Source: Amoebophrya sp. A120 (taxonomy: Eukaryota > Protista > Dinoflagellata). From it: a stretch of DNA of 64,000 bases. Of this stretch, positions 7,115 to 50,500 are shown one piece after another. The notes below the pieces were generated by a model. It was not told the origin of the DNA. It made no database searches and saw nothing but the letters and a program-made list of their open reading frames with translations. Every line of letters begins with the position of its first letter. Within the stretch, counting starts at the first letter, position 1. The position numbers and the translations under genes were made by a program. Location of the stretch: NCBI GenBank assembly GCA_905178155.1, contig CAJINV010000007.1, positions 2,089,151-2,153,150 on the forward strand, given 5' to 3'.

Positions 7115-10100
7115 TCAACTAATCAGACTCATGAAAAAAGAATATAGGTGGACGTAGCCAGTGCTTGCATCTGCGTGCCAAGTAGAACAACGATGAATCC
7201 ACCGATGAAAAATGCACATCCACGTCCTCCACCTCATTGATATTCGTATTCCAGCTAGGTCAGTCGTGCATCCCCGTTGCTTTTCGGTCGTGGCAGTGGT
7301 AGTAGAAGTACCAGTAGTACGGTACTCAAGTGTGCTGGCTGTTTGCCCGAGTCGCAATCCGAAGAGAGTTTCAGCGGACGAGGCCGGGATGTCGATTCCG
7401 TAAAGCGGACCGTTTTGCGGCGCTAGGCCATCGACCACAAACTCGCTCGTCCCACCGCCGGTCGCGGTGGTCGCGCACGCACTTTGTGCAATGTGGAATC
7501 CGGTAGCGCACGCGGACTCGTGGTGCAGAATTTCAAACGTTGGACCCTCTGCAACAGCCGCTCGGCACAGCGGTCTGTATGTTTCTGCAGCAGCTAGGGG
7601 AAAATCAGTATTACCCGATTGGTCAGCGATTATCTCCGTTGATCCGATCCGCCACGCACTCCCAGTAGACTGCAGTGCGACCAATGACGAGGCCTGCTTT
7701 TGATAACAGCCTTTGTACGTAAAGCCACTAGTTAGGCCAATATGACGACGAAAACGCGACGGTGCACCCTTCCCCACCTAGCCATACAAGTATGGTCAGG
7801 CAAACGGCCGCTCGACAGGCGGCTGGTACACACTTGCTTTCTAGTTTTCAAGGACTGTGCTGACACTGCTTCATTCATAGCGCACATCCTCCAAGTCAAA
7901 CTACTAGAGCCAGCAATGCACGACATAGACATTGCAAGGCATGCGAATAGGCATTATAAATTCATCGGAGCGGACCGACGCAGTCCCAAATGGGCATCCT
8001 CCTAGGTTTTGTGCCTGAGTCTGCAAAATGGATTTGCTGTCAAAAACAAGCCTCTCAAATTGATTGGGGCAACAAGTGCTTCTAAGGTCTAAGAGAACCC
8101 CACAATTTGATTTATTGAAAGAGATAGAAGGACCACAAAGCGGCTACTATGGGGGTGAAGTAATTCATATTTATATAGTATATAAATATGAATTACTTCA
8201 CCGTGCCGCCCAAAGAGATAACAAATACAAACTACGAGCCGAGCAGCCCGAGTCGATGGATGAGAATCGACGGGGCGAATAAATGTACAACTTATCTAAA
8301 TCTATGTTGTTTGATTTTGACCTACTCATATCTTGGCCCAGCTTGACAAAGGTGGGCACATACGCGTTTTCACGTCGATACGCCCCAAGACCCGCCACAG
8401 TGGATGCGCCGAAAACCCGCATCGTGCCACCCGCGGAGACAAAGTTATTGGCTGTGCACTCCTTGTCCTGAACATGAAAGCCGACCTGGCACTGCGGGAC
8501 TTGGTATGCCCCTTCAAGAGCATCACCACCAGAAGTCCTTGCCGTGTAAGGAAGAAGCGAAACTCGACCGTCGTCGGACAGAGGTTCCCGCAGGCAAAGG
8601 GTGTGGGTCGTGGACGCCTGCGTCAAAGATCCCTCGGAAGCAATTGACGCTGCAATACCAGAAGGGCCGAATCGGACCTTGTAATCGACCGAGGCCTATG
8701 AAATGCGAGCTCTCTGGATCTTCTGAGACAGAAACACTGCAACGGGCGTCTGGGACTGGGTCCGCGTCCGCCTTCGTGCTCTTGCATTATTTTTATTCTG
8801 GTGGTGCGCGCATTGCTCTGATTCTGATGTGACCCTGCAAAGGTGGCTGGCCCAGAGTGGCCCTGCCCGCGAAAGATGAATAAGCTAAGACGCGTTCGGG
8901 CCGAAGGATTTAGCCCGAGAAGAGTGCTGCACTAAGCAGAAGGGCTCACAAGCACCGCTTGACTTCAGAAACAACGGTCGGCACCGCTTCTGTAGTCAAG
9001 ACTTTGTTTTGTAAGCCGGTCCGCGGGAAAAAACGTTATCGCAACCGAAATCGACACTCCTGTCGCTGTCGTATCTTTCGGGCGAGCGAGGCGAAAATCC
9101 TGCAGACCAGCAGCAGGCCCCAGAAGAAAAACTGAAACTTGCATCTACTCGCCCAGTGCCAGCCCTCGACACGAGTGCAATTTGTGAGCACACCGAACCA
9201 CGGCCCGGTCGTCGAAGGCTACGCGCCCCTGGGCTTTCGCATCCATCAAGTCCTACTGTCTGAAGGCAACGACAATTCGTCGATTGGACACCCAAACGGC
9301 CATACCCATACGCTGGAGCACTTCCGGTGTCCTTTCGCGTTCCAAGAGGGATGCCGGGGCCCCCGACGAATTCGGGTCCGCCTCGACCGTGGACGCAAGA
9401 GCGCTAGCGCCGGAGGAAAAGACCGATGACTGGCAAGGCCTCGGCTCTGCTGAATCTCGGAGTTCATAAATATTTGTAAGATGATCTCGACTTTGCGCCA
9501 CGCCCTCACGCACGGACGTCTGCGCCTGCCCCCGAAGCCGAACCCGATAAGTTGTTTCCGTAATAAAACCTCTCGAAGTTGCTCCCAGGAACTTTCTCGA
9601 CCCCCGAGTGGAACCATCGGCTCGCAAACTTTCTCGACCCTCATTGGCTCGCGAAGCCCTAAATTTTCTGGGTCGCAAGGACCGCCGTCGGGGATGTCCG
9701 GGGCCTTCGGGGAAAACCCAGGCGGGTCCCAAAGAAAAGCTCCTGGCTCAGCCCCGAAGGCTCGTAGTCACAAAAGGTCCCGGGTCTGCGGGTCCTTGTC
9801 TTTCCAAACGGCCAGGCCATCTATGGCCAGCTTCGAGGTCGTATCTATATATGTCATTGACATCGCTTTCGGTTTTATGTTCCTATTTCGAGGTAATAAT
9901 AGATAACTTGGCGGATAACTTGACAAGCCACGGTAGTCCATGCTTGCCGAACTTTCTTTGCCATTTGTCCTTTCCGCGCTGGCACTCTGACGCAATTTCA
10001 ACAAGAGGAACGGAGGTCCTATTAATTGATCAATCAGACCTCCAGCTCCACCATTCTTGAAGATGATCTATTTTGTCTTAATAATTGATCCTCTAGCAAT

Positions 10101-17300: not shown

Positions 17301-20300
17301 GTGTCTAATAGAGTATAGCACTGCAAACGGCCACTGCCTCCCGCTATGCACAAAAGCATGCCAAATCGCTTCCATAATCAGGCGGAAGCATCTGCTGGCA
17401 CACTTGTCTCCTTGCAAGACATCATGTGCGTTTTTTTTGTGGCCACAAATCACCAACAACACAAATTCATTCCGAATGTTCTTGATGTGTAAGTTTTCAA
17501 TATGAGGAGGGGGGATTTTTCCTCTCAATAGCGTCACCTGCTGGATGAACTCCTTTTCCTTCTCGGACGGAAGCGCGATTTCCTCGAAATACCGTGCGGA
17601 GAGCGCCAGCTGGATGAAGACCGGCCAGGCGCGCTGCAGGGCCTTCATGCGCGCCTTCGCGTTGTCGTCGACCGGGTTCATCGGCTTCGCGTTCTCGATC
17701 GCCCACGCCCGTGCCATTTTCTTCTCGTAGTTCACCAGAATCGCGTTGCGCCAGTCTTCCACCTGGGTCAGGTATCGCTCGAACACCTCCTGGCGGTGCT
17801 GCTTCAGCGACTTCAGGTGCGTTTCCAGGTACACGGTCCGCGACTCCGGGTGCCACTTTGCGCGCAAGTTCATGCGGTTCCTGGCGATGATGAAGGTCGG
17901 CGGCTTGGTCCACACGGCGAGCGCCACGTCCACTAACTTCACCTCGTCTGTGACTTTTTGTTTTTCCTCCTTTTTCGCGACCTGCAGAAAGTCGACGTCC
18001 TCGTCATCCGAGTCCCTCCGGTAAATCACGCTCATGATTCTCGGCAGCAGGTCGTCCAGCAAGTCCTTGCACTGCCGCAGCAGGTTCTCGTTTTCCTGCA
18101 CTTCGGCGGAGAAATTGTTCAGGTCCACGCCACCGGACTTGTTGCCCTTGTTGCCCTGGAGCCGCTGCAACTCCAGGCGCTCCTCCGCCGTGTCAATTTG
18201 CAGCAGAATCTTGCTGATCCGGTAGTTCAACACTTTCGTGTCCGGCTCCAACGCGTATGCAACACAAATTTCCTGCCCGCTGCAGCACACGTACAAAATG
18301 CATCACAGATTTCGCAAATTTATATAGAGAAGTGTAAACACTTGTTGTGCAGCTGGTTAGGATCGAGGGTATAGTTTTGTCATGCAGAATAAACCGCATT
18401 TCCATATGTACAACGTGTGCCGCGGGAAAAAAAATATTTTCTTTGGATACCGTGCCCTGGTACTGAAGCTCCTTCGACACGAAGGTGTCGGAGAAAGTTA
18501 AGCTGTGGATCAAGCCCGGCGTGTCTTTGATGGCGTTCCAGTTGAACTGTTCGGTGTGGAGTAAGGATTTTTCCTGCTCCCGGTTCAGCTGCGCGACCCG
18601 CTCGGCCTCCGCCTCGGCCTCCCGCTCCTCCTTCGACAGCTTCTGCTTCTTTGGCTGCATGAAGGAGAAAAGCTGCTGCTTCTTCTGTGGTCTGCTCGTC
18701 GCCCCGGCAGTAGCTCCTGCTTTCTCGTTCTGCAAAGCCAACCGCTTCGCCTGCTCCTCCTGCTCGTACTTCATCGCCGCCAGTCCGCCCGGCTGCGGGC
18801 CGGTGAAGAGGCGCTTCGTCTGCTCCGCCTTGATGAAATTTTTCGCGTCGTACGCGACCACAAAGCTGCTGGCCACGGACTGCTGCTTCTTCTCCAGCAA
18901 GTCTTGCAGCTCCTGCTTCACGCTCGGGTGCGGTCTCTCCAGCGGCGCGCCGGTCTGCTCGTGGAAGAACTGCTTGGTGGAGTCCTGGAAGGCGGAATGG
19001 AGAAAATCCCCGAAATTCTCCACCTCATACGGTGCGGGGTGCAGCAAATCTCTGTGGTCATCAAAGTGAAAGTACAGAGGGTCGGTGTTGTTCCGGTTCG
19101 TGACGCGGGAGGACTTGCTCCTCGCGATTCTCCGGCTGCGCTCCAGGTTGGCCTGCTCGATTTTCTGGTGGAGCCTCTTGCGCAAGTACTCCAACACCGG
19201 TTCCGACACGATGGCGCGGTTCAGTTTCGAGAATTTGCTCGGCTCCGGCCGCACGTTCGCCCGCGGAAGCAGCGGCTGGAGGAGTTGCAGCGTCGGCTGC
19301 GCGGACATCTTTAAACGGTTTGCGTTTTCCTCCGTATTTTCGTCCGCGGCCTCATCATCTTCCCCGTACCGGAGTTTTAGATCCACCTTCGTCGGTACCA
19401 TGTGGTACGACCGGCCGGCGAGGTGCTGCCCCGCGAGCGCCTGGGTATCCTGGTACGCCTGGATGGCGGCCAACCCCAGATCGGCCGTCGACGTCTGGTT
19501 CAGAAAGGGCATCGTCAAACTCGCCTCCAAATTCACCCGCCGGTCGCTGTGCGCTGGGGAGGCGAGATCAAGACCATCATGATGGGGACTAGTACTACTA
19601 GTACGGAATAACAAGTCTTTATTTCGGTTGCTTTCCTCTACTTGTTCCCCGTCACTGTAACTTTGCACGCCGAAGAAACTGGTCTTGCAGTCCTTCACCT
19701 TTTTCAGCACCCGCTTCTGGTTCACGCCAAACCGGGCGGCCCGGCCGCCGGTGACCGCCGCGCGGATCGACCTTTCGTTCGGCGCGCCGATCTTCAGCTT
19801 GCCCTCGTCGTGGCCCCCGGGCTCGAGCAGGTAGGGGAGCTTTGGAATCTGCTTCGACAACCGCGGAGCGTGGATCAGGGTGCGGGACAAGTTGATCAAA
19901 AGCCGCTGCTGTTCCTGCTGTTTGTGGATGTAGTCCTGCAGAAACTCGTTCACCAGAGTTTGCTTCTCCTGTTTGGGCAGCCGGTCCAGAATCTCCGAGC
20001 GGCTAGCGATGGTCTTGTGGAAGGCATTCACTTTGGTCCCGGCGCGGTTCATGCGCAGGGTCGGCGAGCTGGCGGGGAACATGTCGACTCGGAGCGCCAG
20101 CATGTCCCGGATCAACACGTTGCAGACCTCCACGTCGCGCAGCGGCTATCCTGTGCAAAAGTATCGTAGTCGTACTAATTGCAAACATGCATGACAAATC
20201 TCCTTCCTAAGGTAAAACAGCATTACAAATTCCACTTTTCTTCTTGCCAAAATTTGTGATGCAATTTACACTAGTACGATACTTTTGCAATGCATAGCGG

Positions 20301-27897: not shown

Positions 27898-28721
27898 TTT
27901 CTTGCTTTATTTCGCGTAAGTAGTATGAGGTTGAGGACCACTTCTTTGCCTTTCAATTTGCGAGAGCAGTGGTAACTGCAGATGAGATCATCAGGCTCAA
28001 TTATTGCACATGTGCTGGAGGTACAACAGGTAAAAAGCGCGAGGTGGGGGAAGAAGGGTCGTGCGCACCAAATTCACAGCACAAGTCGTTCTAGTCTTCA
28101 CAAAGAAATGTCGCTGGCTGAAGTGAGCATGAACCTGAGTCAACGCTGGAGTAAAAAGAATTTCGGAAAAAAAAATATCTCGACGAGATTTTTGGGCAGA
28201 GTACTAAGCTCTTTCTGAAAGTAAACATCTTCGAGAATGAGGACCGTGACCAAGTTGCAACGACCATCATCCATGTTGAACCAGGACAAGGGCAGAGAAA
28301 GAACAATTAAGTACGAGGTCATGCGCCAGGTGGAATGCCTGGACAGCATGGCGATCCTACGTGCCTATCCTGGTTTTGATCGTTGATCTCAAGTCAAAAA
28401 ATAGAGGATCACACAGGATGTTGATGTCCACCAAAGGGAACAACATGATCTCGGAAAGCGCGAACATCATCGTGGTGCCAACACATATTTTTCCTTCGAT
28501 GTTGGTGCGAGTTTGGAGCAACTGATCATGATGATCGTGGTTAAAAACAATTGTGCATCGTACTATATGAACAGCGAACTACGCGGTCAGCAAGAGCAAA
28601 CCATGAACCAATACCAATCCCATACCCTACGCAAGTAGAGTCGTTTTGGTTTTTCTTTTTCTTCGTAGTAGCGTTTTTTTATTTCGATCCTTGACCATGA
28701 CCTCCGTGAATTTGCACCCTA

Positions 28722-31700
28722 TTATAGCTCCTTCCTCTGCTTTTTCGCTTTTCCGTTTTTCCCGGAGGCGGCACCCGACGACCCAGTGCCTCCCGGCTGA
28801 AGAAAGGCAAGCACTTTCGCCAGACTGTCATCCACGCTTGCAGTTGCAACTCCAGTAGATGCGGCGGTACTGTTGTCCTTCGTCTGCTCGACGTCGCTTT
28901 TATTTCTCTCTCCCGCCGACGGTCCTGAATTTTTGCTGTTCCCGGCACTCCTGCGCTTGTTTGATGAATTCTTGTTTTCAGTTTCACCCGAGGCCGGCGT
29001 CGCAGTACCTGCTGTTGCAGAAGATCTATCTGTTTTTGACACAGAAATCTCGTGCGCAGCAACCACCGCAGCAGGCACGGCTTGCTCTGTCGCAGCATGT
29101 TCTGCACCGGCAAGAAGATCCTTCTGGGTCTTTATCTTTCCGCTTTTTTTCATCGTCTTTTTCTTTTCCCCAACGCTGGTTTTCGCAACAGGAGTTTTGC
29201 TGTCAGCATGATTGCCCTTCTTGTCCACCTTGGCCATGATCTTCTTCTTCAATTTCTCCCCAGCACCCGACGCCCCCCGTCCTCCTCGCGCTGATGAACC
29301 CGCCACCACGATGTCCCGGTCCAAAATGTCCGCGAAGACCTGTTTTTTCTTGTCCTGCATTTCGTGTTTGGTCTTCCACTCCACGTGTCGGGTTTTCCAT
29401 GCGTGCAGTTCGCAGCCCTTCCACACGGCGATGTTCTGCTCGCGGAGCTCTTTTTCAAACTTCACGAGGATCGTCGCAATTTGTTCCTTCTGCTTCGCCG
29501 AAGGCGCGTTCTTCCATGCGGCGGTGGCTACCCAGCCGGTCCGCCGCTGCAAAGCGAGGTGGACGAGAGGAATTATTTTTGTGGGAAAAGACTGAGGCTG
29601 AGAATGACTGCTGGCAGCGCCCCTGGATGCTCTTGTGCTTGTTGTGCCATTTCCTTCCTCCAGCAAGCCGCCAATCAGCTTCGTTTTCATGCTGCCATTG
29701 AGCAGGGGGGTTTTCAAAATTTCCTCCACCATGCGTGGCGCCTTCATCGCGAGGGGGAAGACAGCTGCTGCTAGCAGCTTGATCTCCTTCTCGGCGGTTA
29801 AAAACGGCACGCACTTATCCGGAAAGCTGAGCAACGCGTATCCTGTGCAAAAGTATCGCACTCGTATAAATCCGCTACTGGCATGCAAATAACTTATCAC
29901 CAACCTCTCACCAACTTATCGCCAATTTCCGACAGACCTTTTCACCAACTTCTCAAGAACCGTTGAGAAGTTGGTGTAGACCTCCGCATGCCGCGGTTGT
30001 TGCTTGGGAAGCTTGGCGCGGAGTTGAAATCCACACCAAGCCCCTACCAAGCCGTCTGAAGACGAATACCCCGGGCCCCGATTTGTGGCCGCGTGCGCAG
30101 TCACGAATCAGCCCCCGTGATCCTACTTCGGCCGCGGCCTCGCGCGCGGAAGTGCTAATCTTGTGGCAGATAGCTTGAAAACCTCTTGCAGCAGGAAACC
30201 TTATTCGAGCTCCTGCACATGAAAAGCACAACCTCTCCACGCACTCGTCAACAGTTTGAGTCTCTCGACGCATTTCGCGGCGAGCTTTAAACTTTTGGAG
30301 GCATCACGCAAAACTTGCGTGACGCCTCCAAAAGCTTGAAGCTCGGCGCGAAGTGCGTCGAGAAGCTGCTGAGAAGTGCGTAGAGAGGTTGTTGAGAAGT
30401 ACCAAAGGAGTTATAGCATTAATTGATGTAGGGAGCACGCACAATTGCATTTTTTGCAAAAACAAACAAGACGACGACGATGCTGGCAGTGTGCCCTTTA
30501 GCGGACTGCTGCGCGCTACTCCCTCCTCCAGCCCGAGAGCAGCTGAACGCCGATCCTCTATGGCGAACAGTTGATCTATACCATAAGGGCGCGGCTGTTA
30601 TAAGGCTAGGCTTTTTCGGACTTGGGTGTGGGCCACACTCTCACACACGTCGTTCAGGGGGGACCAAAAACGCACACACCGCAGCACTGAGCATAAGTGT
30701 AGGGCGGGTCTGGTCAGCGACCGAGCCGAGGCAATGAGCCTTGTTTTTTAGGTCCGGCGCGGGGAGCACTTAAGCTCCACAGCGGCTCGGTCGCTAAAGC
30801 TCGAGCACCGGACCCGCTGCGTATGCCATGACGCAGCACATACATGAACGACGTCCCACAGTCAGTGATTACTTCTGGACGAGCTTGGCCAGAAGAAGCA
30901 CGCACCGACCTCCCAAGCCGGCACATGGATCCTTTCCCTGCTAAGTTTTTGGTTGTAAAGTGAGACCAGGGAACGCCCCCCGGAGACAGCGCGACTCACT
31001 TGCCTACTAGCGTACTAGCGCATAGAGCTAACGAGCGGCCCTCAAATCGCTGCCATTCGCCTTTTCGGCTAAAGCAAAAGGGAGGACGAGTGCTCCATAC
31101 AAAAACGCATGTACTGTAGTTCGCTTCTTGCCACGCACAACTCCACGCCGTGGAGCTGTGCATCATGCAAACTGTGGCCATTCGCTCACACAAGGATACC
31201 CGTAAGCACGCGGCAGGACCTGGCGACGGCGCAGACAAGGAGACATCCTGGCGACAAGGTCCCACCTTGCGCCAGGGAGAAAGATGACACGAGCAGGAGG
31301 GACGGGCGCGCCATGTGCGTTGACACGCGTTTTTTGTTTTCGCTCCTGGGCTTTGCCCTTTGAGTTTTTCGCTCGTTCTTGCCGAACAGAACAACTGCGC
31401 CTGGCTGCTTGTAGGTCCCTTTCTGGTGCCTTATGTTTTTCTTTTGCTCTTTGGCTTTCCTTGGTGAAACAGTATCGCTTCCCTGTTTCATGAAGAGGAA
31501 GAAGTAGTGTCTGTTTTGCAGTAGAAGTAGTGTCTTTTTCGAAGATGTAGCTTTTTGGAAGAGGTTTAATTTTTGAAGTAGAAGAAGTTGCTTGCTCAGA
31601 AAAGCGACTTCCATGGTCCTCGTCTGAACTTGGACCCCGGCGAGTCGCGGAAAAACGACCCTATCTTGGGGCTCTCTTCCCGGCTCTCCTGCGTTTCCTG

Positions 31701-34700
31701 TGCCGCCTGCTTCTCGGGTGCTGGGTCGTTTCCTGGCGTCGCTGGTTCCGGACTTCGAAGCTCACCCCAGTCCCCCGAGTTGCTCCGCGCCCGTTTGCGG
31801 TTTTTCCCTGTCCCTTTCGTGCCTGGGGGCCCCGAGCTCGAGGATGATGAGCTGGACGCGCTGGGTGGTTCGTCCACCTCCAGCATCTTGCTAAGGGATT
31901 TTGCAAGCGCGTCCTCGTCAAGGTGGTCCCAGCCTTGCGGGTGGAATTTGTTTTTTATCTGTTCGGCGTTCTCTTCCCACCATGGCTGGTCTTCCCCTTT
32001 GGCCTGTTTTTCCTGCGCCCGTGCTAGTATGCCGCTGCTTGCCTGTGCGCCGTGCGCGGCCGCCTCGCTCAGGTTTTGCGCTTGCTCCTGGTTGCCTAGC
32101 AGTGCTGCTGTGAGGAATTCCGTGCGCTCGCGCCTGCTCATTTCCGGCCAACGCTGTACCGGTTCGAACTTGAAGGCATCTTCACCATAGTCAAAAACAG
32201 GCCAGTCGGCGTAGCAGTCGTGGTCAGCTACATTCACTACCGTCAGACCGGTAGAGATCACGGGGGGCGCTGTGGCAGTCACCCATGATCTGTCTTCGTC
32301 CGCGTCGTACTTACGCTGCTTTATTACCACGCGTCCGAGCTTTTGCACCGCTTCGATTCTTTCTACCAGCGCGAGCACAATCCCTAGGCCCCTGCGCAGT
32401 GGGCCCCGTGTTTTGATCCAGAGCCTGCGGCAGTCTTCTAGCCGGAAGCAGACCTTGGTCGTTTGAGGCCAGGACGCTATGGAATCCATAAGCACTATCG
32501 CGCTGTTGCAGTAGGCTGCGAAGCGCTGCTCTTCCTCTCTTTCCTCGGTCTCGAGGTGCGCGCCGTTGGTCTTTGCCGCCAGCACCGGGATACCTTTGCC
32601 CATTTTCTCCATTTCGCAGGCTACTGTCGTGCCTACGTCTGTGTGGACGACTATGGACACCGTCTTCGTGGTGTGTGCCTTCGCTTGTGGGTCGACGAGT
32701 TCGGAACGGTCCGGAACTATTCCGCACGCCCGCAGGTCGGAAGAGCGTGGCAGGCGTGTGCTTGCTCCGTCGACAAGTGCTGTGACCAGTGCTAGGTCCG
32801 CCCGTCGTCGATTTTCGATTGCAGCTGTGTCAGCTTCGTTGACTCCCGCCAGACCTTCGCCCAAGATGCGCACCGGGAAAGTCGCCCATCTAACCAGTCC
32901 ATCCATGTCCGTAAGGATGTTCTTTTGGGAGAGTCCTCTCAAAATTTTTGTTCCTAGGAGGAAGGGGTCGACTAGTGCGAGGGCGTTCGCTGAAAAAATG
33001 ACTCGGTAGAACGTCTCCGGCGTTGTTCCCGCGACTTCGTTAAGCTTTTTCCAACACTCACTTCGGAAGCCCAGTGCTTGCGCTATGGATGTTGACATTT
33101 CTGTCAAGAGTTCCGCCCAGTCGCCCGGGGTCAGAACTAGACGCAGCGCCGGCAAGATGTACACTAGCGGGGCTATGTAGAACGTCATCACTGTCCATCT
33201 TAGTTTCTCGCCCGAGATCTTCTCCCGCATTGAGTTGACACCACGCGCGCGGTCAGGTGTTGCGCGAAGCCTATCGACGACGCCAGCTGCTTTCGTAGGG
33301 TCAAGCGTTGCTCCTCCACGCTCGTCAGCTTTATCAGCACGCCAAGGATTTTCGTCATTTTCTTGCGCTGAAAGCGGACGCCGAATGGCGTAAAAGCGTT
33401 TACCAAAGCGCGGGCCTCCTGCTCCGGCGCTGATGTGAGCATCTCGCACTTACTCGGAGCCAAGAACTGGCTTTCAGCTCTGTAGATCTGTTCGTAGCTT
33501 TTACTGATCTCCCGCAGCAAGGACAGCACCAGGTCTGTATCACTCTTGTGAAAGCGTAGGACTAGTGTGCCATCATTCATCAACAAACTGCACGGCCAAG
33601 ACCTGGCGCTTTTGCTGCGATGCTTCCGATTCTTCTAGCTTTCCTTCGTACACGACTAGTCGCACTTTTCTTGCGCCGCGCTTTTCTCGTTCCTTTTTTC
33701 GGCGATACCCGGTCGACAAGCCGCCCTGCAGCCGAGGATCCAGGAAAATCTCGTCAACTTCTTCTGCTACTTTGTACGGTGGGAAGGACGTGTCCAGTTC
33801 AGCTGTCTTGTAGTTCTGGCGGATTTTCCACCTTAGGCGATCCTTGGCGCCTTGGATTTTTTCCTTTGCAACTCGTCCCTCTGTGTCGAAACACTCCTGA
33901 GGGAAGTCGTGGATCGCTTCCACGCCTGGCATATACAACAATACCCCCGCGAGCATCGTTTCCACCGCGCCCTGAACCATATCGCGATGGTGGAGCACTT
34001 TGCCGTGGACATCTCCGTTGCGGAGGTAGATCTCCTTTTTCCAAGTCATCATCGCAACTAGCTTGATAAAGACTGGGTGAAGTCTGGCTCGTCTGTACGC
34101 TCGAATTGCGCTGGGTAGTGCGATGCTGTTGTAGTAGTTGCTTGCATCCAGACCGATCAAAACCTTTCGCCAAATATCCTCTACCGCGGCCGCTGCGCTG
34201 TGTGTGTTCGCGGTGCTGCTGCTGCTCGCGCTGGAGCTCGCCGCCGCTGCGGGTGGGTTTGTATCTGGCTGCTGCCCGGGTTGCGATCCCTGGCCCGATT
34301 GATTCGCCACGTCTTCGTCACCCTGCATAAGGCCTTCGCCAAAACACGCTTCCAAGATCTGCCAGACCGTGACGGCGCACGAGGCCGCGGGCTTTCCTGC
34401 CGCTCCCGCCTTCGTGAAGCTGTCCCCGAGATCAGCTACGCGCGTCATAAAATAGGCCAGGTAGCCCATCAACACACGCATGACAGCTGTGCCGCGGATG
34501 ACGGTGCGAAATTTCTTGACATCTTTCGTTGGGACGCCAGACTTTCGCAAGATTTCGACCTCTGTAGCTGCTAACGCTGGCGGGAGGTCGATATCTTCCA
34601 TCCCCGGCAGCCAAGGGCTTGTCGCGATCTGCGCGAGGAAGCTCGTATACCCGTTGGCCAGGTTGTCGAGCTGTGCGTCAGTCAGCGACTGAAAAGCCTT

Positions 34701-37700
34701 CAGCCGCACCCCGTCAATGCCCGCGGCTTCCGGGCTTACCCGCTGCAGGTGCTGGCGCAGCTGCTTGCCAGTCACCGTAATCGGTGGAACCCATTTGCAG
34801 GCGGCTGTCAGCTCATCGAGCATCTTGCGAAACTCCTCGCCCGAGTATGTGTGCTCCTTGCCGTTGTTTATCCGCACGTCCTCGCCTTTCAGCAAGTGCC
34901 ACGCAGCGAGATACTTTATGCACTGCTCCAAGCCTTGGACGATGTTCGGCTCATCAGGCAGACCGACGTCTAGTTCCGTCACTTGCGAAACTGGGGCGCC
35001 TCGGCCCTTTCCACGCACTTCGTCTCGTGCTTGGCGTGCGTTGGAGTAGACGTCGCCGACTAAGTCACGCTTGCCGGCCGCTTGGAAGGACGCCTCCCAC
35101 TTTGCATACATCTCGTCACTTATCTCCGCCAGCGTGCCGGGCTGTGGCTCCCCCTCTCTCTTTCGCTTCGCGCCCTTGCCTTGGGACTTGCTCCGACCGC
35201 GTTTGTTCGTTCGCCTTTGGTTTGCCCGCTCGAACAACGCGCGCATGCTGTCGCCCATCTTCTGTGGCGGCTTTGAGATGGCTTTTGCATCTAGTAGGGT
35301 GTCTTGGGCCCAACTTTGCGCGCCTACCAGTCCGACAGACGCCACGTCCGGCATTTCAGCGGCCTGGAATATCGGCTCCAGCTGCTCTTTCGGATTTGTC
35401 TTCCTTTTCCACGAGGTGATCGCTTGGAACGGGACATCTTCTGCGAAATCGGAGCGATCCTTGATGATCTTCGCCCTGCTTTCCGCCGTTTCCGTGCGTG
35501 GAACTAAGTCGGCGCGCTTCGCGTTGAACCCAAGCCGCGCGCTGGTTTGCTGTCGCTCTTGAATCCTCGGGAGCCGCTTGCGCTCTTCTTCCTCGTCAAG
35601 CGCCTGCGGCTGGCCTGTCTGGCGCCACCAGACTTTCAGCAAGATGGCAAGATGGTCCGCCTCTTGCCATCTAGGGGGCTCACCCTTCTCAAGCATAGCA
35701 CAATCATACGCGTTGCCAGTCGGTATCTGGACACGCTGGACGTCGATGTCCTTGATGTGCGCCGCGCGGCAACCCACTGCGGCTATGTCGATGCGGCGTG
35801 GGTTTTTTCCTCGGAAGCAGGTGGGGCCCCCCGGGTCCACGGCCTTGGCGTGTTTAGACACGAACTGGCCCAAGGGTTCCAGTGCGTCTTCGTAGACCGC
35901 CGCGCCCTAATTATAAAATATTCAATTACTTAGATAATTAACGAACTAGGCGCAGAGCTTGCGCGCCGAAGAGCTGCGCAAGTCCACATCGTCGCCGGCA
36001 GCTTTCCTCCGCTCCGCTTCTGGCGCTTGCGTCTTTGATGGCTGCACGCAGACCAGACGGGTGCGCGCAGATATCGCGCTCGCGCTGTCGGCCGCCTCTT
36101 CCATACAGCTTCGCGCCTGGTGCCGTCGTGCGAAGAGATGAAATTGCGCTGCGAGTAAATGGACAGAGCAAGACTGTGAGTGCGGTCTTCTCTCCATTTA
36201 ACTGCAGCGCTGTTCTCCGCTCTTGCAGCTGAAGTGGCAACTGGGAGCAACGAGCACGACATAACTCGCAGCGACGGAGCGAGTGGCGTGACGCGTCGCT
36301 TGGTCGAGGCGAGAACGACGCCAGCACGCCGCGCCACTTCTCACCGACTTCCGCACCAACTTCACGACCAACTTCGCGACCGACTTCTCACCAACTTCTT
36401 CGACAGTTTATGCATGAAAATGGTGGTGGATTTATACGAGTACGATACTTTTGCACAGGGTAACGCGGTGAGCGCGACAATACCCGCGGCGGGAGGGTCG
36501 GAAGTGTACGTCGGTGGCTGATAAGGATCATCAACAACAGCAACGTCGACAGCTGCCCTTTCTGCAGCTTCTGGTGCTGCGGCACTGTCTGCTGATGAAG
36601 CCGCTTGTTTTTTGCAGGTGTTTTTCTTGCTCAATGCCGGCACGGCCCCGAGGTACAGGATTTGCAGCCAAACAGAAGAATTATTAGCTCCATCAGGAGG
36701 AGGGCCACCAGCTTGCTCTTTGCTGACATGCTTCTTGGTCGTTCTCTTCATTTTTGACGAAGACGACGTCGAACAAGAGGATGTAGTTTTATTTGCGTCG
36801 TTAATTATGTCGGTTGCACTTCTTGTACCTCGTGGAAGTTCTGAGCCACTTCTTGTTGTGCCTGCTATTTCTTGTCCAACATCTGTCGCTATATCGAAGC
36901 AGGCCTTGCAGAATTTTCCCGCCGCGGTTTTGAAATGCGCATTGACCCGCACGCAGCACTGCAGCAATTTTGCCGCGACCATTTGGTACTTTGCAGAATT
37001 GTTGTTCAGATTGCTGTTGTTCTTCTCTCGTCCCCGTCCCACCGCGAGCCACTCGGCAAAGTTCGTTTTCTGCAACAGCAATTCCAGTAAATGTGCGTCT
37101 TTGCTGTTCGTCTGCTTGTTGTGTCCAAGGACGTCCAGGAGCCTTTGGATCACGAGCAGAACGTAGGGGTTGGAATTTGAAAATTTTATTCCCGCACTTG
37201 TTTTTCGTTTCCCGTCGCGGACAAGCTGCTCGAAAAAGGTCGTTCTGTCTTTTTCTGATGCTCCCTCCTCCGCATGATCAGGTTCGTCTTTTTCGCCTTT
37301 GCTTTCTTTCAACAGGACCTCCTTGACAAAGGTCTGCACCACTCGCACCCCGGCTTTATGCGCCGAGAAGCACGCCTCCAGAATCCTGGATCCGACCGGG
37401 CAGTTTAGCAATTCTTCACCCTTTTCCGCGATGATGACCTGGCAGAGCTGCTGCAAGAGTTGCCGCAGCTTTTTGTGCTGCTGGTTCTTCCTCAACGCCT
37501 CGCAAAAGAAATTATCTTCGTCCACACAACTAGCCGCGTCGGCGGCGATGGAAACCGCTGTGCCGATTACCGGGCCAAGCCGGGCGTCGCTGAGAGGAGA
37601 CGAAGAATACGAAGCTTTGCTGAAGGTTGCGCTAGATGAACTACTGGTACTGTTCTTGTGTCTCAATTCTGCGACCAGCTGCTGCAGTAGTTTGAAAAAA

Positions 37701-39028
37701 AGACCAAAGTAGAACGGGGACTGCGTGAGGAGGGGAGGGAAACTTGTTGTTATCGGCGTCGCAGATAAAGCAGTTTCTCCTTCTTCGTCTTTTCGCCTTT
37801 GATTTATTCCGCTTGTCCTCAGTTCATCTGCACCAGTATCTTCGGCGTTCTGTTGATCACCCGCCGCAACGAAAGTGAGCGCAGAGTCCGTGAAGCGTTG
37901 CAACAATTTCTCCACGTCGACGCGCTTGAGGGGGAGGTAAGGATTGGAATTTGAGTTGAACCCATTGATATGATCCCCGCCCCCACTTCCACTTGATGTT
38001 GTACTTGTACTTGTGCCGTTTTTGTTGCTATAATTCTCGTAAGAACCATAACCAGTGCCCGCCTTCTTCCCCTTTTTGTTTTTCTCCACAGGAACGACGA
38101 AACCGCTGAGCATCAGCAACAGGGACCGGATCACGTGCGTCCCCGATCGGTCAGCTGCGATCTGGAGAAAAACGCTGTTCTTCTTTGTAGTTTTCGTCGC
38201 TGGTTGCAACATCTTGGGCACGTCGGTCTCTTGTCCTGGTGGTTGCTGCGATTGTAAGGCCGTTTCTTGGTCTTGTTGCAAGATCTCCTCCTGCTCCGCT
38301 TCAGCATCTTCCCCGCTTTCCAGCAACTCCGCCACCAGCGTGTCCACCGCGGCCATGATAGCCCGGTCGAACAGAAACCCTTTCTCGGCTGCAACGGCGA
38401 ACAGCGTCTCCAAAACGTGACTGCCGTACTGGTTCTGGGCCAGAATCTGGAATACGCGGCCGGCCTGGAGGAGGGAGATAGAGGGAATTGAAATAATTCC
38501 ACAGATAGGTGAAATTATTAGGTCGTTCATTGATATGCGAAGATCACCATCATGCGCGTTCACGTGATCTACGACCATCAAGTAAAAGTATTAACAAGCT
38601 TAGGGCGCATATTCTTGTTGCAGCCTGAAAGAAATTGTAGTTCAAATTCCGAGGTACAACAAAAATCATAGCAAAAATATTACCTGGCGTTCTTCGCCAT
38701 CCGCATGCTCTACTTCCCCCGCCCCCGTTGCACCAGCCGTTCCCGCCCGCGCGGCGGTCGACGTGCTACCACTAGTCCCGATGCTACTAGCACTTTTTCC
38801 GAGCAGGCAGAGGAACAGGGGGCGAAACGTGTCCAGTTCGGTGATCTGCTTCAGTAAGTACTCGATAATCCGGGAACAACGCTGCTGGGTCACGCAATCC
38901 AGCTCGTGATTTTTCAATTCCTGCACCACCGTGCGGAGGAAGGGAATCCGCGTGTCGCTGTCCATCACGCGGAGCTGCTGCTCCGCCATGCGGAGGTAGT
39001 CGAACAGCTCGCTTTTGGAGGACGTCAT
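28722..39028 (-). CDS. NOP9: Nucleolar protein 9 (Pumilio/PUF-repeat), ~1152 aa, split by a GT-AG intron (38465-38683) and a 6.6-kb introner
   Basis: PUF-repeat motifs CSRIIEYLL, YGSHVLETL, GTHVIRSLL and GSRILEAC. The C-terminal KEQIATIL...VWKGCELHAWKTRHVEW resembles Nop9. 10307-6629-219=3459 nt, in frame. Confidence 0.8.
30228..30392. repeat. Long imperfect palindrome (~80-bp stem) in the left arm of the giant introner
   Basis: CTCGACGCATTTCGCGGCGAGCTTTAAACTTTTGGAGGCATCACGCAA-aac-TTGCGTGACGCCTCCAAAAGCTTGAAGCTCGGCGCGAAGTGCGTCGAG, with an outer stem ACAACCTCT/AGAGGTTGT. Confidence 0.9.
30425..35907 (-). mobile_element. 5'-truncated non-LTR (LINE-like) retrotransposon nested in the giant introner
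   Basis: Encodes an APE C-terminus and an RT. Candidate TSD TAATT at 30420-24 and 35908-12 in an AT-rich site. No clear poly(A) tail, so the boundaries are tentative. Confidence 0.65.
31596..35906 (-). pseudogene. APE endonuclease (C-terminal part) + reverse transcriptase + possible degenerate RNase H polyprotein with two frameshifts
   Basis: APE motifs GPTC..RRID..ADHLAI. RT motifs AAGIDG, KFRTV, LDASNYYNSI, VQG, FVD(D), APSKC, KILGV and IAPLVY. Frameshifts: TCAT duplication at 33573-33580 and 2 extra nt, probably in the (CG)4 run at 33244-33251. Confidence 0.8.
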
Positions 39029-39955
39029 TTTGATTGTGTTTCAGTTGAGGATAATCTCAAATCTGGTCTTCTCGACTAATCGTAATCTGGTGCCACTGCG
39101 AAAACAAAAGTAGCAAGGTCCAAGCGTGAAATTGAGAAAGATGATTACTGGCTAATAGATACAAGCACAAGAATTCTTGAGAAGTCAACATTCCATTCGA
39201 TGCACTTTCCTCTTTTTCTGTTCCTGCAAAGTTGGTTGAGCGTAGAAATGATGGTAATAACGCACAGGAAACGGGAAATTGCAATTTGCATCTAAACTTT
39301 TTGTCGGGACAAAAGTTGTCGTGTTTTTCACAAGGATCATCAGGACGTTCGGGATCACATCATTTTTTGTGATGTCATTCGTGATGACACTTGATGCAGA
39401 TGCTGCACTCCATCATGACGCTTGATGCTGTTTTTCAGCACGACAATGACGATCCAGATCAACATCTGACAATTTTTTCCTTTTCGTCGACGAGTAGATC
39501 AAGATCTTAATCTCTTTCTTCTTCATTTGCAGTGGGATCTGATCGTGATCATCCTCCTTCTACTCAGCAGAGCCAGAACCTCCAGAAGAAATCAATGAAT
39601 AAATGGCACCAGAAGTACTCTACACCCATTCATCAAACCTGATCCTGTTGGATGACGATGATCACGATCATTCTGGCGTCAATTTAAACGAGCATCACTT
39701 CAACAACAGAAGAACTCAAGCACTTTTGGGCGCGCGGAACGAAGTGACATGCACGGTGTAAAACTACATCAGCACCAGCTGCGCCTGCAGATTAGGCGCA
39801 GGCGACACCTAATTTAGGCGTCGGCAACGCGCAAACTTAGGCAAAGGCGACGCCTAATTTTAGGTGCTGTGGGCGACACCAGATTCTAGGTAATGTGGGC
39901 GACACCAGCCTGATTTTTGACGCAGGCGACCAGCCCGCACGCGTCACGGAGCCGA

Positions 39956-41365
39956 CCGTAGCCTACGGCGTAGGCGTAGCCTAGGGAGCGTAGCCTAAGA
40001 AAGGGCGCGCGGGCCGTAGCCTACGGACGGGCCGTAGCCTACGGAGCGTAGCCTACGGACGGGCCGTAGCCTACGGCCGTAGGGTAGCCTACGGACCGTA
40101 GCCTACGGGGCGTAGCCTACGGAGGGGGCGTAGCCTACGGCCGTAGCCTACGGCGTAGCCTACGGAGCATAGCCTACGGACGGGGCGTAGCCTACGGCCG
40201 TAGCCTACGGAGCGTAGCCTACGGGCGGGGCGTAGCCTACGGCCGTAGCCTACACCGTAGCCTACGGCCGTAGCCTACGGAGCGTAGCCTACGGACGGGG
40301 CGTAGCCTACGGCCGTAGCCTACACGGTAGCCTACGGCGTAGCCTACGGACGGGGCGTAGCCTACGGCCGTAGCCTACGGAGCGTAGCCTACGGGCGGGG
40401 CGTAGCCTACGGCCGTAGCCTACACCGTAGCCCACGCCGTAGCCTACGTACGGCCGTAGCCTACGGAGCGTAGCCTACGGAGCGTAGCCTACGGAGCGTA
40501 GCCTACGGAGCGTAGCCTACGGAGCGTAGCCTACGGAGCGTAGCCTACGGACAGGGCGTAGCCTACGGCCGTAGCCTACACCGTAGCCTACGGAGCGTAG
40601 CCTACGGACGGGGCGTAGCCTACGGAGCGTAACCTACGGACGGGGCGTAGCCTACGGCCGTAGCCTACACCGTAGCCTACGGCGTAGCCTACGGCGTAGC
40701 CTACGGCGTAGCCTACGGCGTAGCCTACGGCGTAGCCTACGGCCGTAGCCTACGGCCGTAGCCTACGGCCGTAGCCGACGGAGCGTAGCCTACGGACGGG
40801 GCGTAGCCTACGGCCGTAGCCTACGGCGTAGCCTACGGAGCGTAGCCTACGGACGGGGCGTAGCCTACGGCCGTAGCCTACGGACGGGGCGTAACCTACG
40901 GCCGTAGCCTACACCGTAGCCTACGGCGTAGCCTACGGAGCGTAGCCTACGGACGGGGCGTAGCCTACGGCCGTAGCCTACACCGTAGCCTACACCGTAC
41001 GGAGCGTATGTAACCTACGGACGGGGCGTAGCCTACGGCCGTAGCCTACGCCGTAGCCTACGGAGCGTAGCCTACGGACGGGGCGTAGCCTACGGCCGTA
41101 GCCTACGACAGTAGCCTACGGCCGTAGCCTACGGCCGTAGTCTACACCGTAGCCTACGGTGCGTAGCCTACGGACGGGGTGTAGCCTACGGCCGTAGCCT
41201 ACACCGTAGCCTACACCGTAGCCTACGGAGCGTAGCCTTACGGAGAGTAGCCTTACGGAGAGTAGCCTTACGGAGCGTAGCCTACGGAGCGTAGCCTACG
41301 GACGGGGCGTAGCCTACGGCCGTAGCCTACACCGTAGCCTACACCGTAGCCTACGGCGTAGCCAC
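39956..41365. repeat. Palindromic minisatellite array with core CGTAGCCTAC and 12-18-bp unit variants
   Basis: Roughly 90-100 copies (estimated) of the core, followed by GG, GGC, GGAG, AC or GGACGGGG. CCGTAG-C-CTACGG is self-complementary around the central C. Confidence 0.97.
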
Positions 41366-41596
41366 CTATCAAGCGTGTTCATGATGTTCGTAGGTTTTGG
41401 TTTGCTACCTGGCGAGACTTGCTCTTTTTTTTTGGCTGTAGTTTGTCGAGTTGCCGACGTTAACGCTTACCTTTACGTTTTCCACGATACAAAGTTAAAA
41501 AATTAAGCGCCATTATTTAGTGAACTAAACCACAAGCCTTGTGATGTTCATCTAAACAGGAGCAGTGGCAGCAGTGCCTCTGTTAATACTATTGCT

Positions 41597-47500: not shown

Positions 47501-50500
47501 AAACGGCCTGCACGCGGGAAAGACTCTGCTCGATGTGCTTCAGCGGGTTGGATTTTGATTTGGAAGGCTGTCTTGAGGTCTTGCTGGCATCTGCGCTGTT
47601 CGCTGTTCCGGCGGTTTTCGAGCTTGAAGAGGATGACGGCGACGAGCCGACAGCGACCCCAGCCACATGATTCGTGAACGACACAGACGCTGAAGCCTGC
47701 GTGGAGGTACCTCCAAAGGAGTACTCGGATTTTGGTGTCGTTTCAACATCGTCTTGCAGAATATTAAGCCGTCCTTCGTCTGCCAAAAGCACCTCTACAG
47801 TGAGCCAGTAGCCACAGCCAAACCTCCTTTTCAAGTCATGGCTGGTCCCGATCGCCTTCACTTGCCCCTTTGCTAGGACCACTTTTCGGTCTGCGAGGCA
47901 GTCCGCCTCCTCGAGATAGTGGGTGGAAAAGACGATGCTTCTCTTCTCTTCATTCGCCATCTCCTTCAGCAACACCCACAATTCCCGTCTGGACTGCGGG
48001 TCCATACCGCTGGTGGGCTCGTCGAGAATACACAAATCCGCGGTGCCAATCAGTGCCGTAGCGACCCAGAGCCGCCGCTTCTGTCCGCCGGACAGCTCGC
48101 AACAACGCGCGTCCATCTTGGGCAGGAGACCCAGGGCCTTCGCGTATTTCTTCACCTGGTTGTGTTGATGTCATAGTGTAGTTTTAGTACTTTTTGTTTT
48201 CTTTTTGCACGATAAAAATGTGAAGGATTAGCGCGAGCATTCTGCATCGAAAGCGCATTCAGCTGCAACCCGACCTCGGTTCGTTGCGGTTAGTACCTCG
48301 TAACGCGAAATAAGCTATCATCAACAAAAAACACACTGTATACCAGCTGTCCGACGTTTCTCTGGCCCTGCGCGGCGCCGAAGAAGGTCAAGTGCTGCCT
48401 CACCGTGAATTCCGGCCACGTGGGGTTGTCTTGCGGGCAGATGGAACAGTGCCTCCTCACACCTTCCAAGTCGTCCGCAACACTGTACCCCGCGACGGTC
48501 GCATCCCCGGAGTCCGCCCGGAGTAGTATGAAATGCAAAAATGTCTGGGTCTGGAAGAGTGCAAGTTTGTCATGCTTGTCTGGCATGACTCTTAAACCTG
48601 TCACACACGTTACCCAAGAGCTCCACTTTGCTGTCATGCAAAAACGCAGTTTGTCATGCAGAATAGGCAACACCTAGAAGCTCAAAAGCTTGTCATGCTG
48701 AGCCAGCACTTGAGGCCTCTTTATGATACGCCGCCCAGCATGACAAATTTCTAGACCCAGACATTTTTACAATCCATAAGTAGCCCGATCAAGCAATTCA
48801 CCAATGTCGTTTTCCCCGCGCCGTTGTGTCCCAGTAAGGCAAAAATCTCACCCTTGTGTACGGTGAAAGAAACCTTTATGGATGTGTCAGGATCGAAATC
48901 AACAAAATCGAAATAATTTGTGATGCATAAAATGGATACCAGTTGGAGCCTAGTTTCCAAGTGGTGCATGACAAATTTCGGGAGCAACAAAATCCAGCCT
49001 GTCATGCTGTTTCGGAAAAGAAGACTGCTCCTGTCATGCTACTCCGGCAGCGCATCGCCTTCCCTAAACAGGCTTGCAATCGGTCTCATTTGCCTGCTCC
49101 CCAATACAGGCCATATGTGCCCTACATTTTATGCATTACAAATTTTTCGATTTTGTCAATTTCGATCCTGACACTCCCATAACCTTGTCCAAAGCGGGCG
49201 CTGCCATGGAATCGAAGGACTTTTGCAGGTTCTTGATCTCTATCGAATGCAAAAATGTCTACTGGGACTGGAACATTCTAAACTTGTGATGCTGTCGCTG
49301 GATTCTAAAAACATTTGTATTGCATGACCAGCAAGAGGACTCCAGTTTGTGCTACGCGGAGAGGGCATTTCTCATGCGGTAGAGGTATCGCAATGCCCTC
49401 TAAAAATCAGTGATGCTACGGCATGCATCACAGACGTCATGGCTCATGGAAAATATGCATGACAAATCTAGAAATCTTCCAGACCCAGACATTTTTGCAT
49501 TTGATAATCTCCAGAATCGCGGGCGCCGAGGTTGTCGTTGCGCTGGAGGACAGACCGGAACCAGAACTTCTACCCGACACGGATGAACCTGCAGCGCCTG
49601 TTGCGGCAGTACTCGTTGCAGTTGTGCCTGTTACCATCGGAGCAGGTTGTAACAAATTTTGTTGTACACCAACCCCGTTAGCGTCACCAACACGTTCAGA
49701 TCCTCCACCCCAACTTAACCTTCGGCACAAAAAATTTACGCAGCTCGCGTACATACTGCCGAACCGCAACACGTCGAAAAAGTTTTTTTTCCTTGCGCCG
49801 TACTCTCCTTGCCAGCGATTGTCCACGAAAATCGCCATCCGGTAGTAGAAGAAGACAGACAAGGTGAGGGAAAAGAGCAACCAGGAATAGGGCAGCGTCC
49901 CGGGTGGCTCGGAGTCCAACACCTCCCAAAATCCGTCGTTGCCAAAGGCCAGCGGGACGCCGGCGGTGATGATCTCGTTCTTTGAAGAATCTGTAGTTGG
50001 CAATGGAGTTCTTGCAGGAGTTCCGCTTCCTTCAGTTGATGTTGACCACGACGTTGCATTACTTTTTCTACCGTGCGCCCGCGCAATCGCGGATTCGGCG
50101 GCGATTTTTCCCTCTCTCAGGAAGTCGGATACGTGCTTCACCGTGTTCTGCACCGGCTGGCTGTTCCACCGGTCGATGAGGTCCTGCGGGGTTGGGAATC
50201 TCCCGGACGCCGCCATCTGTTCGTTCAAAGACCAAAGCTGTTCCTGCACGGTGTCGACCACCGGGAGAAACGCGGCGCCCGCCGTGGGGCTGCACAACCT
50301 CGACAAGATGTGCGAGAAGCAGAAGTTCGGGAGGAAGACGCAGTTGAAAACAGCGAAAACGAAACCCATCTGCTCGAAGCCCAAGGCGTCGACGATGTCC
50401 TTTTGGTTCAGCGTTACCGTGGTCGAAATCCCCTGGGCCAGCATCAGGCTCGCGGAAGCTGCGATAGATGCGGATCGCGCCCGGTCGAACACCACGGACA

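Follow-up and report, generated by a model that had tools for sequence, protein, structure and literature searches.

A 6.6-kb non-canonical intron in NOP9 of Amoebophrya sp. A120, most likely a terminal-inverted-repeat introner entered by a since-decayed LINE

The ribosome-assembly gene NOP9 of the marine parasite Amoebophrya sp. A120 contains a 6,624-bp element with terminal inverted repeats (TIRs) that is an intron, exactly excised from the mRNA without GT-AG signals. The element occupies positions 29839-36462 of a 64,000-nucleotide stretch of contig CAJINV010000007.1 (the window, to which all coordinates refer) and interrupts NOP9, which is encoded on the minus strand, at about residue 783 of 1,152. 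This non-canonical intron is most likely a TIR introner of about 1.1 kb that was entered by a 5'-truncated long interspersed nuclear element (LINE), since decayed, and its removal is predicted to depend on the pairing of its 35-nt ends and not on its length or content. Two thirds of Amoebophrya introns lack GT-AG, and no U1 small nuclear RNA (snRNA) has been detected.

The two TIRs are each 35 bp long and are identical at 33 of 35 nt; a longer alignment covers 40 nt at 90% identity. The left TIR (29839-29873), which begins with TAT, is at the 3' end of the intron in the mRNA sense, and the right TIR (36428-36462), which begins with TAC (one mismatch), is at its 5' end; the A120 introner type has a TAT start and an A run. 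A 5-bp direct repeat, ACGCG, flanks the element as a target-site duplication (TSD) at 29834-29838 and 36463-36467. Deletion of the element with one repeat leaves NOP9 as one open frame, and deletion of the element alone gives 12 stop codons. The identity of the gene was established by PF22493 (PUF_NOP9), with an E-value of 9.7e-9 for the exon open reading frame (ORF) and 3.7e-12 for the full protein. The translation of the joined exons matches the protein record P0009 (1,152 aa, Amoebophrya sp. A120) letter for letter. This record probably derives from the same genome, so that the intron would already be annotated and the record is not independent support for splicing. If the element were retained in the mRNA, translation as predicted from the sequence would run 33 codons into it before a stop, at a cost of 370 residues. 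The TIR is common to this element and to a 150-bp element at 20147 (26 of 28 nt). A first-pass annotation of the window had described the 6,624-bp span as bracketed by the TIR family of the 20147 element, with near-perfect TIRs, a perfect ACGCG repeat and NOP9 halves that join in frame, and all of these descriptions were confirmed.

The excision was observed in assembled contigs from three runs (X3, X4 and X5), which represent two samples of one study. These runs were taken as RNA on the basis of poly(A) and intron loss; none is recorded as RNA. An X3 contig of 3,994 nt (depth 18.9) spans 28386-29832, 36462-38463 and 38683-39218. Its poly(A) at 28386 and the loss of a GT-AG intron identify this contig as mRNA. 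Its joint from 29832 to 36462 skips 6,629 nt, which is the element plus one repeat. The same exon join is present in X4 and X5, and thus in all three RNA contig runs examined, as the first-pass annotation had expected when it treated the whole element as removed from NOP9 mRNA. There are seven equivalent cut registers at this joint: none is GT-AG, one is GT...GC and none ends in AG. The X3 contigs give no cover of 30996-35639, and those of X4 and X5 give none over most of the reverse transcriptase (RT) region described below, which is not taken as silence.

Folding of the intron on the mRNA strand predicts that its ends pair with each other. Within the intron, each TIR has the opposite TIR as its best predicted partner (-57.6 and -64.7 kcal/mol); the best values elsewhere are -31.7 and -34.2 kcal/mol. 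The predicted terminal duplex (-64.0 kcal/mol) is the strongest of 11 elements in the window. In silico deletion of the insert left 1,146 nt, which retained a 37-bp terminal stem and folded with z = -14.6 (20 shuffles), and two LINE coding pieces gave z values of -0.7 and -1.4. An Rfam search over 29700-36600 returned eight matches, all far under the gathering scores and all hairpin look-alikes, and no ribozyme. End pairing followed by excision, taken as a step alone, is moderately probable.

The main rival, which is less likely, keeps the same history of the element and has each end recognised on its own, through proteins or a divergent spliceosome (using GT...GC, for example), or has the intron removed stepwise, with no long-range pairing. 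One of the seven registers starts with GT, pairing between TIRs is expected anyway as a transposon hallmark, and the available text of Farhat et al. 2021 (PMC7789003) places nearly all spliceosome proteins in these genomes. However, no register ends in AG, and a GT-AG register is possible, in either orientation, in only 5 of 100 family elements among the matches listed. The same text also reports that U1 snRNA was not detected. In addition, no inner joints of the NOP9 copy are among the joints listed for the RNA contigs.

The size of the TIR family was examined in one other assembly, from which a 26-nt TIR pattern recovered at least 134 loci. Among the matches listed, a partner end with a perfect 5-bp repeat was present for 110 of the 147 ends examined, and these matches include at least 100 distinct same-TIR elements of 123-568 bp (median 149 bp) with 89 different 5-bp repeats. 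The NOP9 element is about 44 times the family median in length. Neither the RT (tblastn) nor the inner arms of the element (blastn) had a match in the 134 loci listed. The longest member (L112:294-861) is a 568-bp near-perfect fold-back that is RT-free and has the same 35-bp TIR (34 of 35 nt), the subterminal motif and a 5-bp repeat; it is predicted to fold as one long hairpin of -415 kcal/mol. A further locus (L041, minus strand, 123-466) holds two introners about 50 bp apart and not one 344-bp element. Ten other TIR elements were picked from a census of the window. They are 150-326 bp long and share the same TA...TA build, and eight of the ten have a 5-bp repeat. This set spans 1909-54950, and two of its members, at 1909-2161 and 48526-48778, lie in opposite orientation with 88% similarity.

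The interior of the NOP9 element holds the remains of an apurinic/apyrimidinic endonuclease (APE)-RT gene, co-oriented with NOP9. The first-pass annotation had reported an APE-RT ORF here. The orientation and the type were upheld, but there is no single ORF: the coding sequence is spread over three minus-strand frames, lacks an ATG at its start and has a split catalytic motif. The first piece (35906-33576; 777 codons, no start codon) encodes the C-terminal third of the APE, a linker and the RT up to the catalytic motif. After the first frameshift, which splits this motif at a 4-bp tandem duplication, the second piece (33634-33203) encodes the end of the RT palm, as located by tblastn of the relatives P0001, P0003 and P0006. 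After the second frameshift, the third piece (33449-31599) encodes the thumb-side region and the C-terminus, with tblastn support from P0001, P0002, P0003 and P0006 over 33281-32787. Alignment to relatives places the beginning of the cargo near residue 246 of P0002. The N-terminal APE motifs, which lie at the start and middle of the APE in the relatives, are absent and only the last APE motifs are kept; a search of the right arm for the missing part gave nothing beyond numerous short chance matches (best E 0.008). Assembly errors were considered as the source of the frameshifts and rejected, since a DNA contig over 32912-36317 matches the window with no differences and no gaps, both shifts included. 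The cargo is dead, 5'-truncated and twice frameshifted, and the earlier description of an introner carrying a reverse-transcriptase cassette is overstated for what is a dead passenger.

The cargo was identified through its relatives and a structural model. A full HMMER scan found eight relatives with E-values from 1e-34 to 6e-5, and all seven named ones are from Amoebophrya, strain AT5 accounting for four and A120 for three. The relatives are 1,387-1,738 aa long with an N-terminal APE. Pfam families of the APE type were matched in three of the eight: PF03372 in P0007 (E 1.9e-6, above the cut-off) and P0001 (4e-4), and PF14529 in P0006 (0.017). The RVT_1 family of Pfam matched neither the cargo pieces nor any of the eight relatives. 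The first piece matched no Pfam family and nothing in PDB by phmmer, word-based homologue searches with it gave 0 and 2 matches, and a PDB profile search with the cargo returned only a weak sphingomyelinase/APE-fold match. The RT motifs of the cargo could be aligned with those of the relatives. The atlas features of the RT region of P0006 fall in RVT_1 clusters in 27 of 30 matches (top 0.95). The RT model was built for 35075-33576 from nine sequences and had a predicted local distance difference test (pLDDT) score of 63.5; a single-sequence model (pLDDT 37.7) was not usable. All seven Foldseek matches to this model at E<=0.001 were LINE-1 ORF2p (best E 1.3e-5, probability 1.00, human), and R2 came next. 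On this modelled fold and these relatives, the cargo is assigned to a divergent Amoebophrya LINE family with an APE-RT of the non-long-terminal-repeat (non-LTR) type. None of 16 pattern matches for RT relatives in metagenome contigs was confirmed. In the AT5 gene model P0003, residues 56-142 form a SNARE domain fused to a LINE of the same family, which probably reflects the joining of a host exon to a LINE insertion.

The copy depth of the different parts was compared in DNA contigs from two runs (X1 and X2) of one sample. Depth summed over contigs is not copy number and was used by order only. The depth in X1 is 903 in the bin 30520-30783, then 245, then 48-76 up to 32895 and 21-37 over the RT; the exons have 23-26. 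The arms have depths of 102 and 141, about 4-6 times single copy. Several other contigs, all partial, share an end at 30476-30483 and then stop at 30546, 30706, 30845 or 30923, and a second, diverged LINE copy (about 86% identity) covers 31181-32898. Target-primed reverse transcription leaves a 3'-heavy gradient of truncated copies of LINEs. The depth gradient and the shared 3' end therefore form a LINE-type signature of 5' truncation. The 3' untranslated tail of the LINE (30479-31598, minus strand) is multi-copy, with its depth peak at the 3' end, and the adjoining 54-bp stretch with simple repeats (30425-30478) contains the true 3' boundary. The 3' end has short simple repeats without poly(A), and no ORF1 was seen. 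In addition, an X2 contig (depth 186) joins 30365 to 36013, which is an arm-to-arm form without the RT.

The nesting of the LINE in an introner of about 1.1 kb is well supported by the copy-depth pattern, the truncation and the family sizes. The first-pass annotation had offered this as one of two readings and had cited a TAATT pair in its favour. The pair is present (30420 and 35908), but as a LINE TSD it was rejected: a direct repeat of at least 5 nt occurs between such zones in 82-99% of 2,000 shuffles, so the pair is at chance level and gives the nesting no support. Two other truncated tail copies (30546 and 30845) adjoin AT-rich flanks that resemble the 5' junction of this copy (35908), which hints that the LINE prefers AT-rich targets. 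A relative of the tail segment 30479-30706, with 13-14 differences, has a depth of 226-230 in RNA contigs of X3 and X4, more than 10 times that of NOP9; this abundant RNA is possibly a SINE-like (short interspersed nuclear element) transcript or a read-through transcript from another locus.

The other reading offered was a composite element, in which the arms and the RT move as one 6.6-kb unit, either by means of their own RT or carried passively by a transposase. The near-perfect TIRs and the intact 5-bp repeat indicate ends that could still be mobilised, and the available part of Gozashti et al. 2025 (PMC12130899) describes an A120 family, number 38, that is flanked by TIRs and shows retroelement-like homology. 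A contig of X1 and X2 also joins a TIR end to a LINE tail elsewhere (29866-30479, with 21 nt on one side, the letters between unread, at single-copy depth), possibly a second LINE tail in another introner. The evidence of the NOP9 copy is against such a unit. First, the RT is 5'-truncated and twice frameshifted, with no start and no intact coding frame. Secondly, the depth is that of a single copy in the RT core and in the contigs across both inner junctions, and it is higher in the arms. Third, none of 100 same-TIR elements among the matches listed carries the RT or is longer than 568 bp. Lastly, the AT5 strain also has full-length LINE relatives. A composite unit is thus very improbable.

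The DNA contigs also bear on whether the long element is present at NOP9 at all. Contigs of X1 and X2 cover 29200-29862, 29866-30508, 32912-36317 and 36434-37100 with no differences (X1 depth 20.7-28.7). The contig at 29866-30508 bridges the junction of left arm and insert, and that at 32912-36317 bridges the junction of RT and right arm, both at single-copy depth. The exon contigs continue into TIR sequence on both sides with no break at the exon edge. It could be argued that NOP9 holds a short introner or none, with the middle joined in by way of the repeated TIRs, or that the RNA came from insert-free cells. No contig bridges either TIR by 31 nt on both sides, and the RNA and DNA runs are from different samples. 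However, the exon contigs enter the TIR without a branch, and no empty allele and no excised form is among the joints listed for the DNA contigs. Both NOP9 ends are of a symmetric TIR type that occurs elsewhere in 1 of 100 elements among the matches listed, the long fold-back L112, and this fits a long element at this site. X3 and X4 also contain exact pieces of the unique 35748-35910 region of this copy at depth 2-2.5. An assembly artefact or an empty allele is therefore improbable.

The history favoured here, a LINE nested in an introner, starts from an element with TIRs, a 5-bp duplication and membership in a large family. A fold-back member of this family would have entered NOP9 exon DNA by DNA transposition. 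An APE-RT LINE would then have inserted inside the introner by target-primed reverse transcription, which would have stopped early, within the endonuclease gene. The LINE decayed, as seen in its two frameshifts. Mature NOP9 mRNA lacks the element and one repeat, and the pre-insertion sequence is restored. In the pre-mRNA the TIRs are predicted to pair across 6.5 kb and to draw the exon ends together for excision, as has been proposed for short Amoebophrya introners. A broader model is doubtful, namely that any sequence between paired introner ends is excised at any length with its interior unread, so that introners are self-removing cassettes, and that the LINE family prefers fold-back introners, where insertion is costless in conserved genes.

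Several points weigh against this account. The pairing of the TIRs is a computed result, and the register that opens with GT (GT...GC) is compatible with a spliceosomal donor. The RNA evidence consists of contigs of one study, which show the join and say nothing of splicing efficiency. The DNA contigs break inside both TIRs, so that the placement of the arms at NOP9 rests on the assembly, and the X1 and X2 reads may be the source of that assembly; the depth ratios are ordinal. The joint between 30365 and 36013 appears in the X2 list alone, its shorter side measures 39 nt and the letters between its sides are unread, and no empty copy of about 1.1 kb was read end to end in the contig data. There is no credible TSD of the LINE. 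The family survey was biased to short elements in a fragmented assembly, with flanks of only about 300 bp at 57 of the 134 loci, and 37 of the 147 ends lacked a partner with a perfect repeat.

The other parts of the locus are as follows. The left arm of the host introner (29874-30424) includes a long hairpin at 30228-30392 with a 47-bp inner stem (folding z = -13.6). An X3 contig (depth 5.3) has T>C at 30045 (A>G on the mRNA strand) within the predicted left-arm stem, which may be editing, another copy or an error. The right arm (35913-36427) contains subterminal repeats at 36336-36398 and has about 6 times single-copy depth in the bin 36064-36327. On the minus strand, the first NOP9 exon (38683-39218) is supported by the X3 contig and the P0009 translation and extends to the end of the transcript contig, which is not a mapped start. 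The canonical GT-AG intron (38464-38682, 219 nt) is defined by the joint 38463-38683 of the same contig. The second exon (36463-38463) holds the PUF_NOP9 match of Pfam, and its low edge, placed by the X3 contig, is ambiguous by 6 nt. The last exon (28386-29833), from the X3 contig and its translation, encodes the 370 C-terminal residues, with the stop codon at 28722-28724. A GC-rich array of about 1.4 kb with 12-14-nt units lies at 39953-41390, just upstream of NOP9.

Transposon nesting is ordinary, and A120 introners, non-LTR elements in A120, introns of up to 35 kb, introner families with retroelement matches and the NOP9 gene model were already known. The NOP9 element does not represent a novel type of mobile element, since nesting is ordinary and the public gene model already contains the intron. 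What stays of interest is precise non-canonical excision at an unusual length. Foreign sequence has brought a family member of about 150 bp (or about 1.1 kb) up to 6.6 kb, and its removal is still exact to the base. This argues that the signal sits in the ends and suggests that recognition of such introns goes by their matching ends, irrespective of the interior. This removal is needed for the last 370 residues of single-copy NOP9. Long introners fell outside the 40-1,000-bp window of the study that defined them, and the NOP9 element is a natural test of end pairing. The cargo also reveals a LINE family that escapes standard RT profiles.

In comparison with known systems, the cargo resembles L1-like LINE ORF2 in the APE-then-RT order (seen in the relatives), the LINE-1 ORF2p fold, the 5' truncation and the 3'-biased depth. 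It differs in being too divergent for Pfam RVT_1, and the NOP9 copy has no poly(A) tail or clear TSD. Full-text literature searches, read as titles and the beginnings of abstracts with paywalled papers outside their scope, found no published account in which a LINE lies within a TIR introner of Amoebophrya and the whole is removed by splicing. According to the available part of Nomura et al. 2025 (PMC12501133), the nonconventional introns of euglenids are also non-GT-AG, have a probable origin from miniature inverted-repeat transposable elements and have inverted ends proposed to pair and so draw the splice sites close to each other, a view argued for Euglena with genetic tests. They are from another lineage, and their CAG-CTG end signature was tested by knock-in, whereas pairing at NOP9 is predicted only. 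Within A120, the accessible portion of Gozashti et al. 2025 (PMC12130899) describes family 38 as a TIR DNA class of 808 bp with a 5-bp TSD, TA/TA termini, Copia/Gypsy-like homology and near-identical copies. The NOP9 element, in contrast, is single-copy with a broken non-LTR RT, and was not matched to any numbered family in that portion. The same source lists families 6 and 16, with models of 234-305 bp, LINE peptide matches and TE_end values near 7,150, and family 103, with models of 1,143-1,191 bp. The TE_end values of families 6 and 16 may reflect multi-kb members like the NOP9 element. The closest system is that of the A120 introners themselves. As far as the available text of Farhat et al. 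2021 (PMC7789003) describes them, they have a TAT-started inverted repeat with an A run, a 3-5-nt direct repeat and non-GT-AG ends, and a hairpin was proposed to join the exon ends. In that text, introners are described without internal genes, the non-canonical introns of A120 average 240 nt, the analysis kept introns of 40-1,000 bp and the longest A120 intron in Table 1 is 35,152 bp. The NOP9 element is unlike these introners in size, at 6,624 bp (about 1.14 kb when the insert is discounted), and in content, as it holds a broken RT. It is like them in its TIR type, 5-bp repeat, non-GT-AG removal and organism label (P0009), with an exon-joining hairpin predicted for both, and also in belonging to a TIR family repeated at many sites, with inner arms that are multi-copy as judged by depth only.

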